A stretch of DNA of 64,000 nucleotides from NCBI GenBank assembly GCA_051362555.1, contig CM120641.1, positions 9,114,001 through 9,178,000 on the forward strand, read 5' to 3'. This stretch comes from Lingula anatina (Eukaryota > Animalia > Brachiopoda). Below the pieces are notes generated by a model. That model did no database searches, was not told the origin of the DNA, and was given only the letters and a program-made list of their open reading frames with translations. This document shows positions 42,416 to 56,301 of the stretch, piece by piece; position 1 is the first letter of the stretch, and every line of letters begins with the position of its first letter. A program made the translations under genes and the position numbers.

Positions 42416-45400
42416 CTACTTGGAGTATGACCCGTATCCTCCCCATCCCTGACTGTAACCTGACTGCCCACTCTGGCCATAGGAGCTTGGTTGCTGAGAC
42501 CACTGGTTACCATAGCCACTCCATTGCCCTGATGAACTACCAGACTGACTGGAACTGCCACTACTTGCTCCCTGATTATAATAATTCTGTAGAAAAAAAT
42601 ACCAGTTAATACCAACTATCCATCCACTTCAATTCAAAATCAAGAAATTATACTTACTGCATCAAAAAATAGTAACAACAGTAGCCCATCTTTATGAATT
42701 TTGCCATAATTACTGTTGTCAAACTGACCTTTAGAATGTATAAAAATAGGAAGTAGAGGATTCTCAAAAATAGGAGTTTTATTGCTAATTTACAATTTAA
42801 ATAGGAAATATTGTACTACAAAGTTGGCCTCTGACAGCTATCTTGATCCAGTATAGTTAATCAAACACATTTTAATTAGTTTACATGAATTGTAAGAAAC
42901 TATATAGGTGTATCAAATGGGTGCCTACCTGCCCATAACCTTGGTTATATCCTCCTCCCCACTGGCCTTGGTTCCATTGACTGGACTGACCCCACTGGCC
43001 TTGTCCACCCCATTGCCCTTGTTGACCCCATTGTCTCTGACCACCCCACTGTCCCTGCTGACTGCCACCTCCCCAACTGCCTTGCTGTCCCCATCTACTT
43101 CCACCATAGCTGCCACCACCACCAGAATGGCGACTCTGGTAGCCCTGTGAAGACAATGTGGAAAATAAAAGTGTACTGTTAGGAAAAAAAAATTTTTAAA
43201 TAATGCTAAATACACATGCATGTGCATGCAATTCAAACAAACAGTTAAGATGGAAGAACGCAAATAAAACCAAAATGGTCTGTTTGTGTAATAATAGGGA
43301 ATATAAAAGACAGCTAAAAGACATTAACCACATCTTTCCTTGTCAATTTAATTTTATATTGAATGGTTCATTCATTTTCATCGTGATTTTTACCTGGCGA
43401 TCATCTTTTCCGCCATAGTTATGTGCTCTATTTCTGTCATGAGATGAGTATCCCATGTAACCACCACCACCACCACGTCGATCATAGCCACCTAGAACAG
43501 ATCAAATTTGTTAACATCTACATCACTCCATGTAATATCTGGAAATAAGAAGCAGAATTATCTGAAGAGTATAAAATTTCACATTTTAAGCTACCACTTG
43601 TAACTACTTCAAAGGTAACCAACCAGTATCTATACTCTTGATAGTCTGTAATGTCTACACTACTCAATGTCCAATATGGAAAAAAAGATCACACTGCTCA
43701 ACAGTAAAATCTCATATCATGGTGTTTTTACAAGTTATTTTATCCCACAACATTTAACCAGCGTCTTCTGGAGGCAGATTTTCAGTTATGCAACACTCTC
43801 TCTAGATCTCCATTTTATACGAAGCAGAAGGTTGAATTGCACTGGTTACTGGGTCGAGATGAACTAACGATCAACAGTGACAAGATGATGTGTCCATCCT
43901 TGAGGCATTGAGCATTGAGGCTGTTCGTAAAAGTGGATGAACTACTTCATATAATGCTCATTTACCCCTGCCTGAATGAGATCTGCCCTGGTAGCCATGA
44001 TGGTCTCCATAAGAACCTGAAGAAATTGTGAATCTTAAATACCCTGATAATCTTACTGAGTCCACTCTGTAGAGTACAGAGTAAAATAACTGTCACATAA
44101 AATCAAATACATACTTCAAAGCTAGTTGTCTATTTGCAACATTTTGTCATTATTGTCCATTTCTTTTGTGTATGTGTGGCATTGAGAGCCTCCATGTCAG
44201 TTGACACTCATGGCTTAAAGGCAGAAGTCTTTAAAAACCATTATAAATATAAATTGCCTCAATTTTGCTCAGATATAAACACTGGAAATTCTTTCTCAAA
44301 ACATTCTACTGTAAAATGCTGTACACTCAAATAATGACCCTTGCAGCACTAACAATCAACCCCATACAATTTTTCAATAAGTCAAATTTTAGAAGTCTAA
44401 ACAAAGAATTTGATGGAAGAGAAGAGATTGCAGAAAAGGTTAAACTTATATATTCCCTCATGCTTACTGATTTGAAACTTTGGTTTCTCTATGATAGATA
44501 CAGATGCTTACTGCTTATTTGTCAGTCTGATCAATGTACAAACTTAGTGCACGTGCAAGATTTTGCTAACCACCTACTTCTATACAATATCTTATTAGTA
44601 CATAGGTTAATGCTGTCATAACCTTATGTTCAATAAATTATACAGTCATTCAGATATATCTTGAGACAGTCTCCTAAATAACTATTCATCAAGCACAATA
44701 ATTAATTTATGTAAAAATAAAATGAACATGGCTCATGCATCAATATCTAAATATAGTTTTCAAATTCTAACATGGCTGAAGACATTCTCTGCCTTAAGAC
44801 ACTAGGCAAGAAACACTCCTTGGATCCTCCAACAGAGAGGATGACCCACCCATTTTTTGTCAAACAACAAACTAACCTCTTCCTCCCCTTCCACGGTCAT
44901 CCCTGCCTCCATATCTGTCCCTGAAGCCACCCCCGCGGCCACCACCACCACCTCCGTAGCGATTGCGATCTTGGTAACCACCTCCGCGACCCCTGAAATC
45001 ACGCCTATCTCCACCACGGAAGTCACGACCTGAATTCATATTTTTCAAATTTTGAACTAAGGATATATGTGATAATAATACAAAAAATGAAAATAATTGT
45101 GAATATAAAACAAAGCTAACTATTTTCAACACTTTATTTAAATTCTAAGACCGACTAAAAAACAACACTGGATCATCAAAATCATTATCATCTTACAGCT
45201 TTTTTCCTAGCTTTTGTTTAAGCTGATGTCTACAATTTGAGATCAATTTTGGATTCATCAGACAGGAAAATTTCAGTGCACGTCTTATACTAAAGTCTCA
45301 CCTCCACGCCTGTCATCACTGCGGAAACGTTTATGAGGAGGAAACATCTTCTGACCCTCCTCATTGTACTGTTTCACAAGCTTCTCAGCTTCTTCTTTGC

Positions 45401-48400
45401 TTTGCTCTACAAATTCCACAGCATCAAAGGGACTGCCAACCTCTGGCAGGTGAAAGTTAGCTGCAATTACAACCAAATCTAATATTAATTTAGTTTTTCT
45501 TTCTCCCCAGTGGGTTTTAAAGAACCTAGCCTGCTGTTTTGCACTTATTAGCAAAAACTGTGTGCTTGACCAAAACAGCAAACTAGGTTGCCTCAAAGCA
45601 AACATAGAGAAGAAGATATTGCCTCCAAGTCTCTGTTTGCTTTAAAGAACATCGATATCCTTCTGTCAAATAATATACATATAAACATGTGCATCTACTA
45701 AGGCTAATTGTCTAACCTACAACTGCCTGCATGCTGGGCTGACAAATCCTACCTTTCATTTCAAGTACTGCATGTTCAGGCACATCTTTGCCCTCCTCTT
45801 TCTCCCGACCTGCAATCCTCTCTTTGAACGTCTCATCTGTTGGTATTACCACTATAGCCTTGCGTTGAAAGCCTTCAAAAGGGCGCATTTTACGTCTCTG
45901 GGCCGATGGATACACATTTGTCTGCACATGACGGTAAAAGACAATAGGATATTCAATGTGTCTTGATTCTTAATTGTGTCCATACTGACACCATACTCCA
46001 TTTGTTTTTTTTTTCCTTCTGCAAGATAAGTCCATAAGACATGATAGACTGGCCATCGGCCCCTTTGCTGTTACTCAGTACAGAGTAGCAGCTGACCATT
46101 TTCCTTGGGATATACTCACCTCCTACTGACTGGGTGGTACTAAACCTACAACTGAAATTTTTGACTCTTGTGAACTAAGCTTATAAGTAAACTGCCCTGA
46201 TGTTTAATACACATATATATGTGTATATATATGTGTGTGTGTGCCATCTCTGCAGACTTAATTCCTTCTTGTGCTTGGCATATCTTTCTGCTCCATGCTA
46301 CTGCTAAATCACGGAAAAAATGTGATTAGTTTTCTTGCTTAACAATTACATTCTACATCCTGTTGGATCATCACCATATAATGCTTAAGTACATTAGCAT
46401 CCCAGTGCATTATGTTTTCTGTGAAGCTCCTGTTGTTGTGTATCCTCAGCCATTTGTCACCCCTCCATTAAAATAATGAAAAGCTACTCACCTTCTATTA
46501 CTTTGTTCTTCTTCATGTCTACTCACCCCCTATCCCAGTAACCCAAAGGAAAATAACTTACCTGTACCTACCCATGTTAATCCTCTACTTCAGACCTCAA
46601 ATGGTACTTACCCAAGTTTTTTTCACTTTTCAGCTTGGTCCACCATACACTTGCCCTCCCCAATTGACAGATAAATATTTAAACAGTAGGTTCACTCAAT
46701 CAACCAAGGTCAGCTCACAATACATACCCTCTGATACCAGTTTGTGAAAAGTTTATTTACCACAAAGATATAACATAAGTAAATATAACATATGATACAA
46801 AAAGATACTGAATGAGATAAGCATGCATCAACTGTTGCATCATTAAGTTGAAGGTTCTTCACTTTATTAAGGCCATTTCCTTATCAGACTCCCATTATCC
46901 AAATGAAGCATAACTCAACATCCTCTTATGGTCTGGTTCTGTTACTCTGCCCAATACAAACTGCAAGTTGCTACTGAAATAAACTTCTGTGCTATCCACA
47001 TCGCTGTACCGAAACTGCTGCATCAAATGAAAAACTTTCAGGTAAATAATTCTTTCTGCTTCTGCATAGCATTTTCTCAGGTTGTAATATTAACAACACA
47101 ACTAACTGCTGAAAAAAATTCTCTTTCAATTGATTTCAACATTCCAGTTCATAATTTGCTCATGGGCAGGTATAATCTTAGATTAAAAGCATGAAAATAA
47201 AATGACAGTTTCACTGTGTAGTTTAGCATGACCTTTAGCTCTTTGTACTAAACAAATTCAACTTAAAAACCTAAAACAACTTGTTATAACTAAGATTTCA
47301 ATCCTAATGCATCCAATGTGCTCTTCTTCCAGGATGAGCGTGCCTTCAATTAATGTGCAGGAGGCCCAGCTTTCAGAAAACAATAAATCTACTACCACAA
47401 GAGCTGCAAATCAAACATCCTCAGGATCACAATAACACAACTAACATGAAATAGAGGCATCTTATACAGATAATGAAGTAGTACTGAAGTATGAAATCTG
47501 CAAAAATTACAGGAACTATAATAACCTTTAAATGGTGTTGACATGTATATTATTATCTTAACTAACAAACAGTTCATTATGACCTAATACTTATAGAAAC
47601 CTGGCTGAGTGAGTGAACCAAACTGCAATGACAAGAGGACTTATATGGTAATGTGAATCATATGAACTGCCCATAGTCATCATCCCACCCCACACCTTCT
47701 CTGCGCATAGAACATTGAAACTAAAAATCTGTTTTTACCTGATCTAAAATGTAGTTCCTTTTCTTTCTGGCAGCCACCTCCAAAAGCCTGTTCAGGCATC
47801 TTGTAGATTTGTCAATGAGAACGTCCCAGCGTCCTGCATAGTTCCTCTTGCGAGGCAAGCCCATCACCTGAAAGAAGTTATATCAATATTCTTGAAATTT
47901 GCTGGCACAGTGGTTTGTTTTACCATTACAAAGAATTTTAACAGGGATGACGTGATAAATGTTCAAGAACGGAAATGAAACGATACCAAGGACCCTGATA
48001 TATTTTTTCATTTAATCATTGAACAATTGAAACAGATTACATTCATCTTCAATGATATTACCTTCATCTTATCAATAATGTTGTTTGTACCAAGAATGCA
48101 ATATTGTTTATCTGGAAACTCTGCTACATGTTTGTTAGCCCAGTAGGTCTTGCCACTTCCAGGCAGTCCACACATCATAAGGACCTGAAGAGTCAAGCAG
48201 CAAGGAATATACAAGGAAGGCATGTGATATTCCTTTATTGAGATGGGGTCATCCAGCCAAGATTTTACACCTGAACACCTCACAGCTCAATTCAAACTTT
48301 TTTGTGGAGGTAGAATCCAATTCAACAAGAAATGCTGAAGAGGAAAAATACTGTACCAAACCATCAAATAGTGCTTTTTCTTTGCTGTTGTGATCAGTGA

Positions 48401-49559
48401 GATCTTGCCTGTAAAGACCCTCTTAAAAAACTAAATAATTCAGGCACCTCAGATTTTTGGCACAACTCATCAGTTCCAAGAATGTTGTAACATTTTTCCC
48501 TGTGTTCTTCTGCATAATTCAATGCCCATCTAGTTTTTCCTGATCCAGGTAACCCACACATCATTATTACCTGTATATGAAATTATTACAGTTCAGTAGA
48601 TCTATCCAAACAAGAAGTCAACAGCTGAGAAAATGGTACAAACAGTAAGTCATATTTCATTTTCACTTATAATTTACCCTTCTTGGCAGGGAACATCAAC
48701 AAATAGTTCTTGTATAATAGCAATCCACAAATAACTGTTCAGTAAGACAGAACCTGTTAACAAGAACAATAATGTAACATCAACTAAAAAAACATCTATC
48801 TGGGAGATACCTCACAGTCTTCCTTCTTTTCTGGTGGTAGTGCACCTCTCTGGCGGCTCTCTACTGGCACAGCATTCAGAAAAGTGAAGCCTTCCAAGAT
48901 GGTACTCATTGGTTCCTCCTAGAACATACAATTGAAATCTATGAAGGAAATGATGACACACACTTTGCATAATGCCAAAAATTCTAAGACTGAATCATGG
49001 CTCAGAATAGCGTATAATATATGATCATCTTACATCATTAAAATGTTGTCCTCATTGCCAAAGATTCGGTACGTCATGTCAGAACTGTTAAATCGACATC
49101 TTTAAGATTTTAATATTTTTGGCCATTGGCTGGCTATTTTGGTTGACCTGAATTTCACTAGCAGAATAACTTGAGTTGTAAGATTAAGCTAATTACTGAA
49201 CCCGACAGGAATTTAGCATCTCAATTCTGTGCCAACTTACTTTCTGCCCAAAGTTGGCCTCAAATTCTGTGTTCTTTGTGAGGACATGGGGGAACAATGC
49301 TTTCCCTTCAAGTTCAGAGGCAGGGACTTCAAAACAGTTGCCTTGGTCAACACCATTCTTGGTGAATTTTATGATGACTGGATCACTCTCAAAGTCCTAC
49401 AGAAAAATGGAAATAAGAATGAACACAAACACTGGCATTGTATCAAATTTTTGTAAATCCACCACACAAGTTAACCCCAAATTTCGTATTCTTGGCTCAG
49501 AATAGTGTATTGTTGAATGATCACTGGCAATCACATTAACATATCCTTGCCATTGAAAA

Positions 49560-49627
<68 letters not shown>

Positions 49628-52600
49628 AGTTAATTGATTACTTATTAAAGGTATAAATAAAATAATTGCAAAAAGAAAACTAAATTACCAAGACTTTGAT
49701 AGTCTAAAATAAAATCTGCCAACAAAGACAACTTACCACATAAGCTCCAATGACATCTCCCTCTCCAAATGTCTCACCATAGTCATTGAATTTACAGTTT
49801 ACTGATGATTTTGCAGTACCACCATAACCATAGGAATGGGGTTCTTCACCTATAATTTGAAAGGCCTTCTTTACAAAAAATATCTGCATGATCATTAATC
49901 CAAACAATGTACCCGTTTACTTAGAAACTTCTGTTGCCAAATCTACCAGAAATTGGGAATACCAAAGGTGCTGCTTTAACCTCTATATAAGACTTGTAGT
50001 CAATATTACCAGCTCTTACCTAGCTGCATACTTGTATCCCCTGTGGACCAGCCAACACGGACCACATGTCTGCTCGTCTCTTCATCAGGGAGATGGTCTA
50101 CTTTGATTTGCTCCATGATCTAAATACAACACATGAAAGTAAAAATGTGTGCAAAGAAGATTAATTAAATAATTATGTGTAATTCTTAGATACTCAAAAT
50201 GTTTTAAAGAACTGAATTTCCAGCATTTACCTTGACCTCATAGCAGACCTTCCCTTCCTTAACTCCCCACATAGCTCTTGCACCTGCCCACATGAATGCA
50301 AAGCCTTCCATGGTTAGAGGAACACATTTGAAACCATCCTTGTCAATCTTCAGATTCAAGTCAGAGTTATCTGGAATGATGCAATTTTTTCAGTACAAAG
50401 AGTGCATAAATAAAATTCTACAGATTAAATGTGACAATTTACTATTCTATAACATAGACTCATGTCCCTTTGTAATGTATTATATGTCCAAGACAGATAT
50501 TATGCCAAATACTTTGACTAACTTTTTCTATGCCAATCACATCTGTGTAGCATATCTAACAAACATGTTCTTTGAGCCTTTTGCGAACAACTCACATCTG
50601 TCCCACTGTACATCTGTAGCACTCAGCCATTCTTCACTCTCTTCTTCCCTTGGTGGACTTTTTCCCCTAAAATACACATGGACAGCATTGTAATGACCAA
50701 TTATAGTGCCTATCAAAGGTCCATTTCTTTATTATGCTATACCTCAGGGCGAGCAGGCATGAGTTTCCCCCCAATTTATTCATAACTATGTCCACAGTAC
50801 TTGCTATTAACAGAAAAAATGCTTGAGAAATGTGCACCAATGCATTGTAAAGTACCTCGGGGAATGTCTGTGCCTATCTCTCGACCTTGACCTAGACTTC
50901 TGTCTGTGGGGTGAGCCCGATTTCCTTCTGCTCCGGTCCTTTGATCGACTTCTTGAACGAGATCTTTTCCTGCCTCTCTTCTCTTCTATAACACAAGACA
51001 ATAAAACACCATAAATTTTAAGAACTGCCTACTCTCATGTGGGTCTCAACTCCATTACATGCTAAATTTTTTCAATGATACTATCAGTATAGAACACAAT
51101 TCTACCCCCCCCCCCCCTTTTTTTAATGAGGCTGGCCACAGTCATGACACACTAAGTAATTTTGATTTAAATACCTTTTATTAGTGCTATACAAATTAAA
51201 GCTTCCACTTGCCCAAAAACTAATAAAACTACTACAATGAAAGCAAAACTAAAAAAAATTTACAACTGCACACTTTACCTATACGTTGTCTTGCATGCAC
51301 TTCTACAGAGACCCATATCAAGTAGTTTCAAAATGTTCTGTTCAGCACACTTAAGTTACCTTTGTTATCTTGGTTATTATCTTCCCGTTTCACATCATCC
51401 TCTGCCTTTTCTTTTTCCTCCTGCATCTCTTTTTGTCTATCCATCTTCTCTTCAGTTTGTGCTACATCTACAGCACTCACACTATTACCTTGTTCCATAG
51501 ATTCTTCCTCTTCAGCTGGTTGTTCGGATGCTTCTTCACTCTTTTCATTCATTACTTGGTCAGCACCCTCTTCCTCTTTGTGGTTTTCTGATTCCTGGAG
51601 TTAAGAATTTTATTCTTTATTTTCAAAATTAAAAAGTACCTTAATATCTCAAACTTCTTGCTATTCAAAAGAAATATTAGTAGTTATTCACCACAACAAT
51701 AACATTTTGGTTAGGTAGCAATGTTTCAATTTACATTACGTAACATTGAGCTTTTGCAGCATTTCTCCATTACTGCACTTCTCCCACTTCTCTCTAGGTT
51801 TAACCTTCTTTAAAAATCAAATGCAGCAATCAAGCCAATGTTAATCAAATTAAAAGACTTACAAGAAAAGAAAGCTGGTGAAAAGCTTTATGTATAAAGC
51901 CACCCCTCCTCTCTTCGGTTTTCATCAGAAACCAGGCACTGGACAAAATCACTCACCCAAAGAACTTTTCCAAATTCCATCTTCTTTATCTTCAGTTCTC
52001 ATTCTTCAATTGGATTTCTCATTAAATTGGTAACACAATTGGAAAAAATTTCCACAACAGACCATTCTTACACAACACCAGATTTATTAAATCGATACAT
52101 TCCACAACCAATCCCTCATGCCTTCCTGTCACTTGTAGATCACAATGTAAATTTGAGAAGCCCCAAAACTGTCAAAAGTTTCCATTTCAATTGACAGAGA
52201 TAATGCATACAGGATTCACAGGTTGATTAAAAATTGTGTTATTCCATTCAATTAGATTGATTATCACATCTTTTTGATGAATCAATTCATTTACATCAAA
52301 GTCAAGCCCAAATAAAAGAACACATACATTAACAGAAATGTTAACCAATGTCCACGACAAGGCTCTTCAAGCTTAAATATATTATTCTCAAGCGTCTGTA
52401 CAAATCTCTTCTTTTCTTTACAGTATATAACTTATGTTGGTAAGGCAGCTCTACAGGCTTCCTGCTGGCATTGCTTTTAACCAAGTGTCTTCCATTCTTC
52501 CAAGACATTTATATACACAAGTCTTAACTGTCATCTTCAACCATAAATGGATATTTTTGTGTGCAATGATATTGTAATTGTATATATGTGCTAATTAACA

Positions 52601-55600
52601 CTGTCCCCTTCAACTGACATTTTCATTACATACAAAAAGCTTTACATATATAAAATAAAAATTCTATGACCATCAAAATTAAGTGTACAGCAATTATTAT
52701 TAGCGAGATATTAAAATGTCATAATTCCTGTACCTTCAACTAGGTCCATAAATTCAATATTAGTATCTCTTGTTATGTGGACAACAAGAGCCGGTATGTC
52801 CTCTACGACCACAGCCAAGGCATAGTTTAGTAAGAGACAAGCACACCACATCAGCATGACCCTCTCTACCACATCTATAACAGGTGCCAGTAAAATGGCA
52901 ACCTTCATGGGCACTGTGTCCAATGCGACCACAATGCCAGCATTTGTCTGGCCACACATGGGACAAGTTGAGACGAACTCCAATCAAGGCATCATCCCAC
53001 TGTCTGCCTGCTATTTTCACCACATCCTTCACTACCTTTCTGAGGGCTCCAAGTTGCAGGTTCACCCCACTCACTGGATCTATCCAGCCTTCTTGATTAC
53101 TGTTGCCATCTGCTCCCCTCATCTGGCTGGCTATGCTGTAAAATGGTGTCTGGTATTTACTGCTCAGGAGACGGCACATGTTGTCCAGATGGTCGGTGTG
53201 GTCAGCTGGAATGTCTTGCCTATAACCAGGGGCCACAATGATTGGCTTCACATGCATACGGTGCAGAAATGCTATCAACTCCTCATAGACAAAACTCACT
53301 TTTCCAGTGATCCAAGCTATGATACTCTCATTTGGTACCAGCTGGTAGTCGGCCAAGTCATTGGATCCCATACAAATAGCTGCCCATTCTGTATTTTCTG
53401 CAAGGTCATTGGTTGCAAGGACATGTTTAACAATCTCGCTTGCTCTTCCTCCTGCTATAAATCTGGCTTCCACAGAAAGTTCGTATAACAGTCTTATGAT
53501 GTCAGCATCTTCTGCCAAACCTTTCAACAAATTATCTCCTATGAAAACCATTGGTTTAACATGAACAGAAAAGGCCAAGGGTACAGAATATTTGGCCCTC
53601 TTACGGTCAGTGCCCCTGTCACTGCTCTCTCTTCTTGAATTACTCTTTTCCCTTTCAAAAGGTCTCTTCTCTGAACTTCTTTGTTCATTTTTATAAAGTG
53701 CCCTATATCTGTCAGCTTCTTTCTCCAACCCCTTTATCTCAGCTTCTTTCTCCTTCAGTTTCCGGGCAAGATAACGAACCTCTTTCTTTTGCTTATCTAC
53801 TTCATGTCTCAGGCGCTCTTTTTCCTTCTCAGATTGATCTTTCATTTTTTCAAACTTAAATTTGGTATCACGCAAAACCATTTCTTTGCGCTTTATTTCA
53901 CCTTTCAATCCAATGGCCATGTCCTTTCCATTGCCATCAGTTATCTTACCAGTCTCCAACTTGATTATATAATCCTGTGAACTTCTCAGCTTCTTCTTCA
54001 GTTGACTATTCTCCAATGTGATTCTCTTTACCTCCTCCTGTAATTTACCCCAATCTCTTGCCATTTTCTCAATCAGCAACTGGGATTCTCTGCACTTAAA
54101 ACACCTCCAGTGCCTGTGCCCAATAGCCTTCTCATCCTCTTCACCAAGACAATTTTTATGATAGATTCTAGGGCAACCATCACATTTCACCCATTCTTTC
54201 TTCTCTTGGTCTTCTTCCTCATCTTCCTCTGTCTCTAGGCAGATAGGACAGGCATCCAAATCTAAGTCTTCTTGGTCAAAGTTGTCTCCGGACACCTCTT
54301 CTACTACAACCATATCTTCACCCTGATGGGAAAATATAGCCTGCTCAACAAAACTTATTATTCTTAATAATTACTAATGCAGTAAGGAGGTACCTTAATT
54401 ATAAACTAAAAAATACAGAGCAACCCTCTTTGATATCTCTCCACCACTGCAACTAAACAAAACATTTCAGTATGCAGGAAAAAAACTTTGTCAACTTCTC
54501 TCAAATAACCTACCTTCCTTTAAAACTCTTGGTTTCATTGTATGAATGAAAATTTGAACCTGTTTTATCAAGATACAGTTGTATGAAATATGCTATTTCA
54601 GAGTGGGAATCTATTTAATCGAATGGGAACCAAAAAAGCCCGAAGTCTTGTGGCTCAGGATAAAAATTAAGCGAGAAGCATGTATTCACTATGTTTTGCT
54701 TGTTATGATATCATGCAATAATTGGTAGCCCCATTTCACACTATCTTTTAATGGTTTCCATGATAAATAAGTCTAGTTTTTTTTCTGGTTCCAATTGCTA
54801 CTTACAAACTTTATGTAAGGTCATGTGTCGTGAACTGGTGTCTTAAAATCAAGGAAATGTTTACACAAACTGAAATATTTTCCTTTGGCGCAACTAATGT
54901 ATTTGTTGCAGTATAAACCATGGCTTTCTTGGAACCAGCTTTTAGCATTTTTTGTCTATTTTCAGGGAGAAAATATAGATGGGACACAGTAACTTAGACC
55001 CTTGCAGCACACTGAAAAAGGTATTTGCAATACTAATGTGAAAGCAATGATACTTTCAAACACTATATATGACAAGTAGTTCCAGTTTTATGATGAGTTT
55101 TCTAAGGAAACCCACACAACAAGAAATATTACCCATGTAACACAAATAAGACCAGTTCAGGACGCATGAACATACAAGCTTGCTACTTTATATTGACAAC
55201 AAATGATAACAAAGTGCATTACTATCAAAAAACACAAAAATACTCAAAGTTGCTCCATTACTAACATTAGTTTGCATGTAACTTGCCAATGTCATTGATT
55301 TTCACAAAAATCTTATGACATATTGCATAGAAATGTTGACATGTAAGGTTGGGAAGTGAACAATGGTATACAACATGAACTGGGTCATTGCTCAGCCAGA
55401 GGCATTTATATATCATTTTGACAACTGTATCCACAAAGAAATGTGGAAAGCAAAGTTTAAAGTTTAGAGCAGAACAAAAAGTTAGTCATTCATTCTTACC
55501 TCTTCCTGTTGTTGTTCTTCTGGTTGTTCACAAGTATCTGCTGCTGGCTCTGGTTCATTTTCTAATTCTTCTTCCTGGGGTAGTTGTTCTGGTTCTACGT

Positions 55601-56301
55601 CTGGTATTTCTACAGGTGCCTCTCCCTTTCTGGGTGAAATGGACTCATCTAAGTCTTGACTCCCATCATCTGTTGTATCAAGAATAGAGTCATCCACCTG
55701 GCTGTCATCTGCTGGAATAACCACATACAGCAATGAGTTTTGTTTAACATTTTTTAAAGAAATTCAAGACCTTCTCTTCAAGTTTTGTATTTTACATTTC
55801 ACAAAAACAGAAATTTTGAAGTGATGATGGTTTACAAGAACAATTCATTTCTCACATTTTTGATGGGAAACAAGCCCTTTTCAAGGCAACAAATATAAGC
55901 AATACAATATAAAGTGCTTTTCAGGGCAACAAATTCATTGTGCAGATCTTAACTCAAACACTTTTCAAGCCTGGTAAGCCATACTTACAGCAGGCCTAAA
56001 GTTGAAGGAAATACAGACTCTTAATTATTTTTGTTGGAATCAATATTATTCTGTGGTGACCATTTTTTAAAATAAACTAAATGGAATGAGATTGCATTCC
56101 CTCAATTTAAAACCCAATTATGAGATTTGAGTTAAGTGGCTATATAAAGGGTTTACCGGTCTCTATCCCTTGTTCTTTGTCTAATGCATTCTGCAGTCTT
56201 TTCACCAACTGGGCTTTGTTTCCTTTGCTGTCCAGGCCTCGCGTCTTTAGTTCCTCCCTCAACTCCACAACCTTCAACTTTTTTGGATCAATTTCACTCA
56301 T
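42416..56301 (-). CDS. HNRNPUL1: hnRNP U / hnRNP U-like protein (SAP, SPRY, AAA_33 P-loop, RGG, prion-like tail); co-ortholog of vertebrate HNRNPU/UL1/UL2
   Basis: Exons 56301-56157 ([18 protein letters not shown]), 55711-55500, 51594-51360, 50985-50856, 50666-50596, 50370-50231 ([16 protein letters not shown]), 50119-50020, 49849-49737, 49396-49241, 48918-48811, 48184-48062 (GLPGSGKT), 47867-47739 ([10 protein letters not shown]), 45921-45753 ([18 protein letters not shown]), 45460-45302, 45029-44877 (RGG), 44016-43966, 43491-43394, 43144-42929 and 42586-42416. An in-frame upstream ATG exists at 56334; polyA signal near 41670. Confidence 0.95.
48448..48570 (-). CDS. Duplicated alternative Walker-A exon of the hnRNP U-like gene
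   Basis: CAG|123 nt|GT, phase 0/0, encodes [41 protein letters not shown]; paralogous to exon 48184-48062. Confidence 0.75.
48998..49060 (-). ncRNA. SNORD54: Box C/D snoRNA, SNORD54/U54 homolog (guide for 18S Gm644, human numbering)
   Basis: TGGCA-ATGAGGA...TATACGCTATT-CTGA-GCCA. Terminal stem, variant C box as in human U54, and an 11 nt guide complementary to 18S AAUAGCGUAUA; the D+5 rule gives the G of AAUAG. Intronic and sense to the host gene. Confidence 0.88.
49493..49552 (-). pseudogene. Degenerate second SNORD54-like copy
   Basis: TGGCAAGGATA...ATACACTATTCTGAGCCA: D box and stem are kept, the C box is damaged, and the guide has one mismatch. Confidence 0.6.
49557..49625. repeat. (AAAT)n microsatellite
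   Basis: About 17 units seen directly. Confidence 0.95.
52760..54322 (-). CDS. Intronic transposon-ORF1/Gag-like ORF (PHD, coiled coil, SGNH-like, 3x CCHC); candidate alternative terminal exon of the hnRNP U-like gene
   Basis: 517 aa uninterrupted ORF: CPIC..CDGC..H..C..WRCFKC (PHD), long coiled coil, IGDN / GG / MGSND (SGNH blocks) and three C-terminal zinc knuckles. Acceptor TATTTTCCCATCAG at 54323 is in frame, phase 0. Confidence 0.85.
   Translation of the reverse strand, partial: GEDMVVVEEVSGDNFDQEDLDLDACPICLETEEDEEEDQEKKEWVKCDGCPRIYHKNCLGEEDEKAIGHRHWRCFKCRESQLLIEKMARDWGKLQEEVKRITLENSQLKKKLRSSQDYIIKLETGKITDGNGKDMAIGLKGEIKRKEMVLRDTKFKFEKMKDQSEKEKERLRHEVDKQKKEVRYLARKLKEKEAEIKGLEKEADRYRALYKNEQRSSEKRPFEREKSNSRRESSDRGTDRKRAKYSVPLAFSVHVKPMVFIGDNLLKGLAEDADIIRLLYELSVEARFIAGGRASEIVKHVLATNDLAENTEWAAICMGSNDLADYQLVPNESIIAWITGKVSFVYEELIAFLHRMHVKPIIVAPGYRQDIPADHTDHLDNMCRLLSSKYQTPFYSIASQMRGADGNSNQEGWIDPVSGVNLQLGALRKVVKDVVKIAGRQWDDALIGVRLNLSHVWPDKCWHCGRIGHSAHEGCHFTGTCYRCGREGHADVVCLSLTKLCLGCGRRGHTGSCCPHNKRY

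Follow-up and report, generated by a model that had tools for sequence, protein, structure and literature searches.

A duplicated exon may let a Lingula HNRNPUL1-like gene switch between a dead and a live polynucleotide kinase

Human hnRNPUL1, the closest described counterpart of the gene studied here, is a dead polynucleotide kinase (Pnk): it has an asparagine (Asn), N456, where PNKP has its catalytic aspartate (Asp), D396, and it binds nucleoside triphosphates (NTPs) without hydrolysing them (PMC13066744). The engineered N456D protein phosphorylates 5'-OH RNA and double-stranded DNA ends, and changes to the hydrogen-bond network of the pocket alter RNA and FUS binding without catalysis (PMC13066744). 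That hnRNPUL1 has stayed one residue away from an active kinase was called remarkable by the human study (10.1101/2023.07.22.550030). In polynucleotide kinases the Asp is the general base, which takes the 5'-OH proton and so enables attack on the gamma phosphate (PMC3902929), and in the T4 and Clostridium enzymes this role is lost on change to Asn (PMC3902929, PMC2831316). Here we analyzed a window of 64,000 nucleotides (nt) from the brachiopod Lingula anatina (contig CM120641.1, positions 9,114,001 to 9,178,000; all coordinates below are those of this window), in which an HNRNPUL1-like gene carries two adjacent copies of the exon encoding the ATP-binding loop, exon A and exon B.

We propose that splicing of this gene selects between two old duplicated exons, and that exon A, the minor one, retains the ATP-binding loop and swaps the dead-kinase Asn for Asp. 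A small share of the protein would then likely become an active 5'-OH polynucleotide kinase, with catalysis deduced from the residues: the A form would phosphorylate 5'-OH ends of RNA or DNA, the B form would only bind such ends, and the altered helix behind the Asp may adjust the acceptor pocket. Exon A is very probably a real, old, minor, mutually exclusive exon, and the pair a splice switch. For the whole reading, active kinase included, sequence comparison supports a probability of roughly 0.4, which makes it the best single one, with a non-catalytic retuning of the pocket close by. The features of the exon pair are as follows.

48448..48570, minus strand: exon A, the minor alternative copy, 41 codons (RNA depth in 7/8 runs; RefSeq isoform X2)
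48448..48570, minus strand: layout of exon A, namely strand, Walker A, helix, strand, GTD, divergent helix ELCQKSE
48062..48184, minus strand: exon B, the major, canonical copy with the dead-kinase Asn (both flanking joints in 8/8 runs)
48532..48555, minus strand: Walker A codons GLPGSGKT of exon A (same protein as exon B, 6/8 codons synonymous)
48469..48471, minus strand: codon 34 of exon A, GAT, Asp (equivalent to human hnRNPUL1 N456 and the PNKP general base D396 by ungapped numbering)
48083..48085, minus strand: codon 34 of exon B, AAC, Asn
48448..48471, minus strand: divergent 3' tail of exon A, codons 34-41, DELCQKSE (scores below 153/153 family peptides)

A preliminary description of this DNA, made from its letters, had reported a tandemly duplicated exon with an identical P-loop peptide in both copies, and this held in detail: both peptides translate exactly as given, each exon is 123 nt long and in phase 0, and a 263-nt intron separates them. 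Both are preceded by AG and followed by GT, and the weak donor ascribed to the upstream copy is indeed GAG|GTGCCT. The two exons are identical at 68/123 nt and 22/41 residues, and 13 of the 22 common residues have different codons, including six of the eight in GLPGSGKT. A profile built from 153 family peptides found exactly two copies of the exon in the window (78 and 68 bits) and no third. All four possible splice forms (A, B, A+B, neither) stay in frame. The copies are thus adjacent, homologous, equal in length and phase, and have intact splice sites, as mutually exclusive homologous exons do; no similarity was detectable between their intron flanks. In equal length, phase, adjacency, age, homology, and use by substitution, they resemble the described mutually exclusive exons that arose by tandem duplication (PMC8373072, PMC9741552, PMC5740500), from which the Lingula pair differs in that the swap falls on the catalytic general-base position of a pseudoenzyme. 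A shifted match between codons 33-36 of exon A and codons 37-40 of exon B (9/12 nt), considered as another origin of the Asp, was judged to be chance.

Both exons are used in RNA. Eight of the nine listed Lingula runs were analyzed (X5 was left out), with 6-30% of each run read and a splice joint listed only at three or more reads. Exon B dominates: reads across its upstream joint (48811 -> 48184) number 6 in X4 and 8-27 in the other seven runs, and those across its downstream joint 6-30 in all eight. Reads on exon A, whose absence the preliminary description had named as telling against it, occur in all runs except X4, at a depth of at most 5. Its share by depth is 2.4% in X1, 0 in X4, 4.9% in X7, 18.1% in X2, 5.7% in X3, 1.1% in X8, 3.5% in X9, and 16.7% in X6 (pooled 6.6%); the values for X2 and X6 are upper bounds because these runs also have reads in the flanking introns. 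The joint from the exon A donor that skips B (48448 -> 47867) is listed in X2 only, with 4 reads from 2 starts. Depth directly upstream of exon A, in bins at the exon edges, is 0 in X3, 0 in X9, and 0.1 in X6, as expected of spliced reads, and from these edges and RefSeq isoform X2 we infer the upstream joint of exon A. Runs X7-X9 have reads on exon A although their neighbouring exons differ from the window at several fixed sites.

The substitution is also annotated. Exon B is present in six of the seven full-length Lingula records found in two clusters; in the seventh, XP_013416101.1 (isoform X2), exon A replaces it, exactly as a substitution. The exon swap has thus been on record already, in an automatic annotation whose name carries no functional comment, and apparently has not been interpreted so far. 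We found no paper on an exon swap at the general-base position in the HNRNPUL1 family, Lingula included, in a literature search that mostly did not extend to subscription journals, and the accessible part of the human hnRNPUL1 study reports no natural Asp form (PMC13066744). Of the mutual exclusivity suggested in the preliminary description, the use of A in place of B therefore stands, on the 48448 -> 47867 joint and XP_013416101.1; strict exclusivity, like translation of the A form and catalysis, is what we infer. Among the joints it had named, 48448 -> 47867 and 48811 -> 48184 are listed as given above, and 48811 -> 48570 and 48448 -> 48184 are listed in none of the eight runs.

The divergence of the two exons points to selection on the protein. 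Synonymous difference between A and B (pS) is 0.85, which is saturated, and nonsynonymous difference (pN) is 0.35, falling to 0.17 in codons 1-16. When neutral decay was simulated (20,000 runs each), 0.14% of the runs with 0.3 substitutions per site still had the P-loop of 8 residues, the open frame, and the two splice sites all together; with 0.5 or more, no more than 0.005% did. Saturated synonymous sites together with an intact P-loop indicate that exon A has been under protein-level selection, and tandem duplication with such selection on both copies, as previously proposed, is borne out. The comparison with relatives used 153 distinct non-Lingula family peptides, a set biased by the way it was retrieved. 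Positions 1-33 of exon A lie at the family median, with 88/153 peptides scoring lower (73/153 for exon B), and the conserved positions at which exon A differs cluster on the acceptor side. By these sequence measures, selection has preserved exon A on its ATP side and along the strand as far as Gly-Thr, and its last eight codons have diverged independently. What the swap alters is the 5'-end acceptor side (codons 34-41), not the ATP side. This departs from the earlier suggestion that splicing switches the nucleotide-binding module, for Walker A is identical in both copies and positions 1-33 of A fit the family as those of B do. The label of ATPase variants is also the wrong frame for exon B, since human hnRNPUL1 binds NTPs and does not hydrolyse them (PMC13066744).

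Further residues of the kinase domain lie in the neighbouring exons of the host gene.

42419..56301, minus strand: host gene, HNRNPUL1-like, Lingula anatina, encoding SAP, SPRY, polynucleotide-kinase fold, and RGG tail
48811..48918, minus strand: upstream constitutive exon, ending KEDCE
47739..47867, minus strand: downstream constitutive exon with the lid and the Walker B Asp (D505 equivalent)
45753..45921, minus strand: following exon, 169 nt, with the T507 and R516 equivalents, sometimes skipped

We mapped residues by setting the Walker A Gly at human position 433 and numbering without gaps, a mapping based on the residue numbers of PMC13066744. It reproduces G433, K434, T435, W437, W477, D505, T507, and R516 in the Lingula protein; the equivalent of R468 is Pro in both isoforms. 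The Walker A Lys and Thr/Ser of the P-loop kinase fold are intact, and equivalents of the PNKP-type acceptor Thr and Arg (T507, R516) and of the Walker B Asp are present. Human position 456 falls on codon 34, which is Asn (AAC) in exon B and Asp (GAT) in exon A, and by this numbering only exon A has the general-base Asp of active 5'-OH polynucleotide kinases. The human protein and its N456D form are thus like Lingula in the SAP, SPRY, P-loop kinase fold, and RGG layout, in the spacing of the named residues, and in having Asn in the major and Asp in the alternative form. They differ in that the human Asp form is engineered and its tail unchanged, whereas in Lingula the Asp form arises naturally by splicing and has seven more codons altered behind the Asp.

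The structure of the A isoform was also predicted. The model is confident over exon A (10-residue blocks of 89-95) and sets the Asp at the start of the helix that follows the second strand, and its best non-SPRY structural match is mouse PNKP (3zvl; Z 11.3, root-mean-square deviation 3.3, 138 aligned residues); other P-loop kinases come within 1 Z of it, and T4 PNK scores Z 9.4. Foldseek with the kinase domain alone ranked PSTK first and PNKP fourth, and sequence searches of the PDB reached T4 Pnk over Walker A only. Because the alignment underlying the A model consists mostly of B-like sequences, the fold adds no independent evidence for tolerance of the tail; the lid is of lower confidence, which is not assignable to exon A from the A model alone. 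Mammalian PNKP, T4 Pnk, and Clostridium thermocellum Pnk share with the A isoform the predicted fold and a general-base Asp after the second strand, from which Lingula is set apart by an identity of about 17-19%, the lack of the DxxR arginine, and its embedding in an hnRNP with SPRY.

Other sequences that carry Asp at the N456 position were found in Asterias amurensis, Clavelina, Ciona, Candidula, and Physella records, which mostly keep the downstream DQTN motif. These natural bearers have the Asp in all fetched isoforms, not by an alternative exon, and most have the canonical D/E-K-M-K/R tail. A quick tree places the Asp-bearers in three separate places, with the Asterias gene among Asn-type echinoderm genes; the Asp has therefore probably been acquired or retained on several occasions, and both tolerance and repeated use would account for this. 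Eight metagenome loci (L027-L033 and L035) and the proteins P0223, P0270, P0250, P0251, and P0032, of the hnRNPUL1 family, likewise have a constitutive Asp there with a canonical tail and are, by sequence, candidate natural active kinases. In protein P0137, two tandem Walker A stretches lie in one open frame, the first of them incomplete, possibly through an independent partial duplication of the same exon.

The exon pair itself was seen in Lingula only. Word searches with the exon A peptide among proteins of 73-2000 and 22-72 residues gave no candidate, which is weak evidence, and the best of the 150 representatives listed is 69% identical and of the Asn type. Each of 40 metagenome loci (L001-L040) has one exon copy by the family profile; a further set, L041-L080 of the 80 loci in all, was left out as weak P-loop matches. 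In 10 of the 40 the exon is alone with the upstream intron fully covered, and none of these is known to be brachiopod. Among 174 records with enough flank, pairs that are near-identical outside the exon and different within it occur in Lingula only; a scorpion record pair resembling an exon swap was rejected, as it differs throughout.

Several results weigh against an active A form or against its importance. In the human family, hnRNPU N512D and hnRNPUL2, which has Glu, are inactive (PMC13066744, data in its Figure S3), so an acid residue is not sufficient. The DxxR motif of phage and bacterial RNA-repair Pnk (PMC3902929) is missing, exon A reading DELC, and its arginine is absent from A and B alike; the revived human mutant is active regardless, so this lowers only membership of the phage/bacterial subfamily. 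The Asp opens a tail, positions 34-41, that scores below all 153 family peptides and has lost Met40 (95% conserved) and Ile/Met/Leu37, and the named natural Asp-bearers mostly keep the canonical tail, unlike exon A. An Asn-to-Asp change arises in 7-8% of the neutral simulations, and 14% of family peptides have Asp. Inclusion of exon A is low (0-18% by depth, the two highest values including unspliced reads), and the joint into exon A (48811 -> 48570) reached three reads in none of the eight runs. No second species with the pair was found in the sampled animals, among which no other brachiopod is known; all that follows is that the pair is not shared generally by these animals.

In a serious rival, the A isoform is functional and mutually exclusive with B and is still a dead kinase: the altered helix and lid would act on how RNA ends are bound or on how nucleotide controls the disordered arms, with the Asp incidental. 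The whole tail, and not codon 34 alone, departs from the family; pocket changes in human hnRNPUL1 shift its binding of RNA and FUS without catalysis, and Asp does not revive human hnRNPU (PMC13066744). Against it, the Lingula domain keeps every residue named for the revived human protein except R468, and the Asp is exactly the change that sufficed in hnRNPUL1 (PMC13066744). It is a real contender, and were it right, exon A would make an ordinary, already annotated minor isoform.

It is rather unlikely that exon A was once selected and is now a decaying, leaky relic, its weak donor giving a minor and perhaps unstable protein with no present role. Such decay would fit the GTGCCT donor, the zero depth in X4 and 1-6% in five other runs, the tail unlike that of any relative, the lack of a relative in the exon A peptide searches, and a non-synonymous variant at 48498, seen in 3/5 reads of X6, which changes codon 25 of exon A from Glu to Lys (E25K). 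It fits poorly with positions 1-33 at the family median (88/153 lower) despite saturated synonymous sites, with the intact frame and splice sites, and with reads in X7-X9, which differ from the window at several fixed sites.

That exon A is not strictly exclusive, and is also spliced in alongside B or occurs in transcripts that retain introns or start internally, is very improbable: some depth lies in the intron upstream of A (1-3 in X2) and directly downstream of it (2.15 in X6), an A+B form would be in frame, and no exclusion device was found, but neither an A-to-B nor a skip-both joint is listed in any of the eight runs (weak evidence at such depth, with few reads on A), the sole listed joint from the A donor skips B, and RefSeq annotates a substitution.

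As for an exclusion device, the upstream intron and exon B share an 11-nt inverted repeat, which had suggested competing RNA pairing; in tests for it, none of 7 region pairs beat shuffled sequences (best, 7/40 shuffles as strong). No long AG-free zone marks a distant branch point (the zone is 48 nt), and as a rule of thumb, a 263-nt intron is too long for steric exclusion. The weak donor of exon A probably makes B the default.

An active A form would, tentatively, be a natural splice-regulated polynucleotide kinase form of hnRNPUL1, with pseudoenzyme and live enzyme from one gene and the Asp re-evolved in a duplicated exon. It would be a clear case of splicing toggling a pseudoenzyme, and the A/B pair, identical elsewhere, would be a ready-made controlled experiment on why the fold is kept and what the live version does at RNA and DNA ends. 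Taken with the Asp-bearing relatives in sea stars, tunicates, and snails, it would imply a "dead" hnRNP U-family kinase that in many invertebrates is alive.

The host gene has the layout of the HNRNPUL1/hnRNP U family (SAP, SPRY, an AAA_33 P-loop domain, and an RGG tail), and the RefSeq HNRNPUL1-like proteins of Lingula anatina match a neighbouring exon of the window gene at 100%. The preliminary description had called it hnRNP U-like, with reference to hnRNP U/SAF-A; by RefSeq name and top matches the gene is of the HNRNPUL1 type instead, and the quick tree, which had no named hnRNPU vertebrate row, puts it among invertebrate Asn-type genes. RefSeq annotates two near-identical gene copies (XP_013416100-104 and XP_013416105-106) on contigs equal in length. 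The window agrees with one copy in the exon at 49396-49241 and with the other in that at 48918-48811, and reads are polymorphic at site 48866, so the two may be uncollapsed alleles.

Skipping of the 169-nt exon (45921-45753) appears as loose read ends at 47739 that match an exon at 45460 on the minus strand (4 reads in X4, 3 in X8, 5 in X9, vs 20, 22, and 12 for the normal joint at 47739). It shifts the frame and leads to a stop 17 codons on, a candidate for decay-coupled self-regulation. A host-gene intron contains, at 54370-52763 on the minus strand, an open frame of 535 codons that shows a PHD finger (Pfam E-value 1e-5), a coiled-coil-like stretch, a weak GDSL/SGNH esterase match, and CCHC knuckles; we take it to resemble an ORF1 protein of a long interspersed nuclear element (LINE). 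Exons of a neighbouring gene at 40191-38021, minus strand, encode peptides that look like what is presumably a phytanoyl-CoA dioxygenase family protein.
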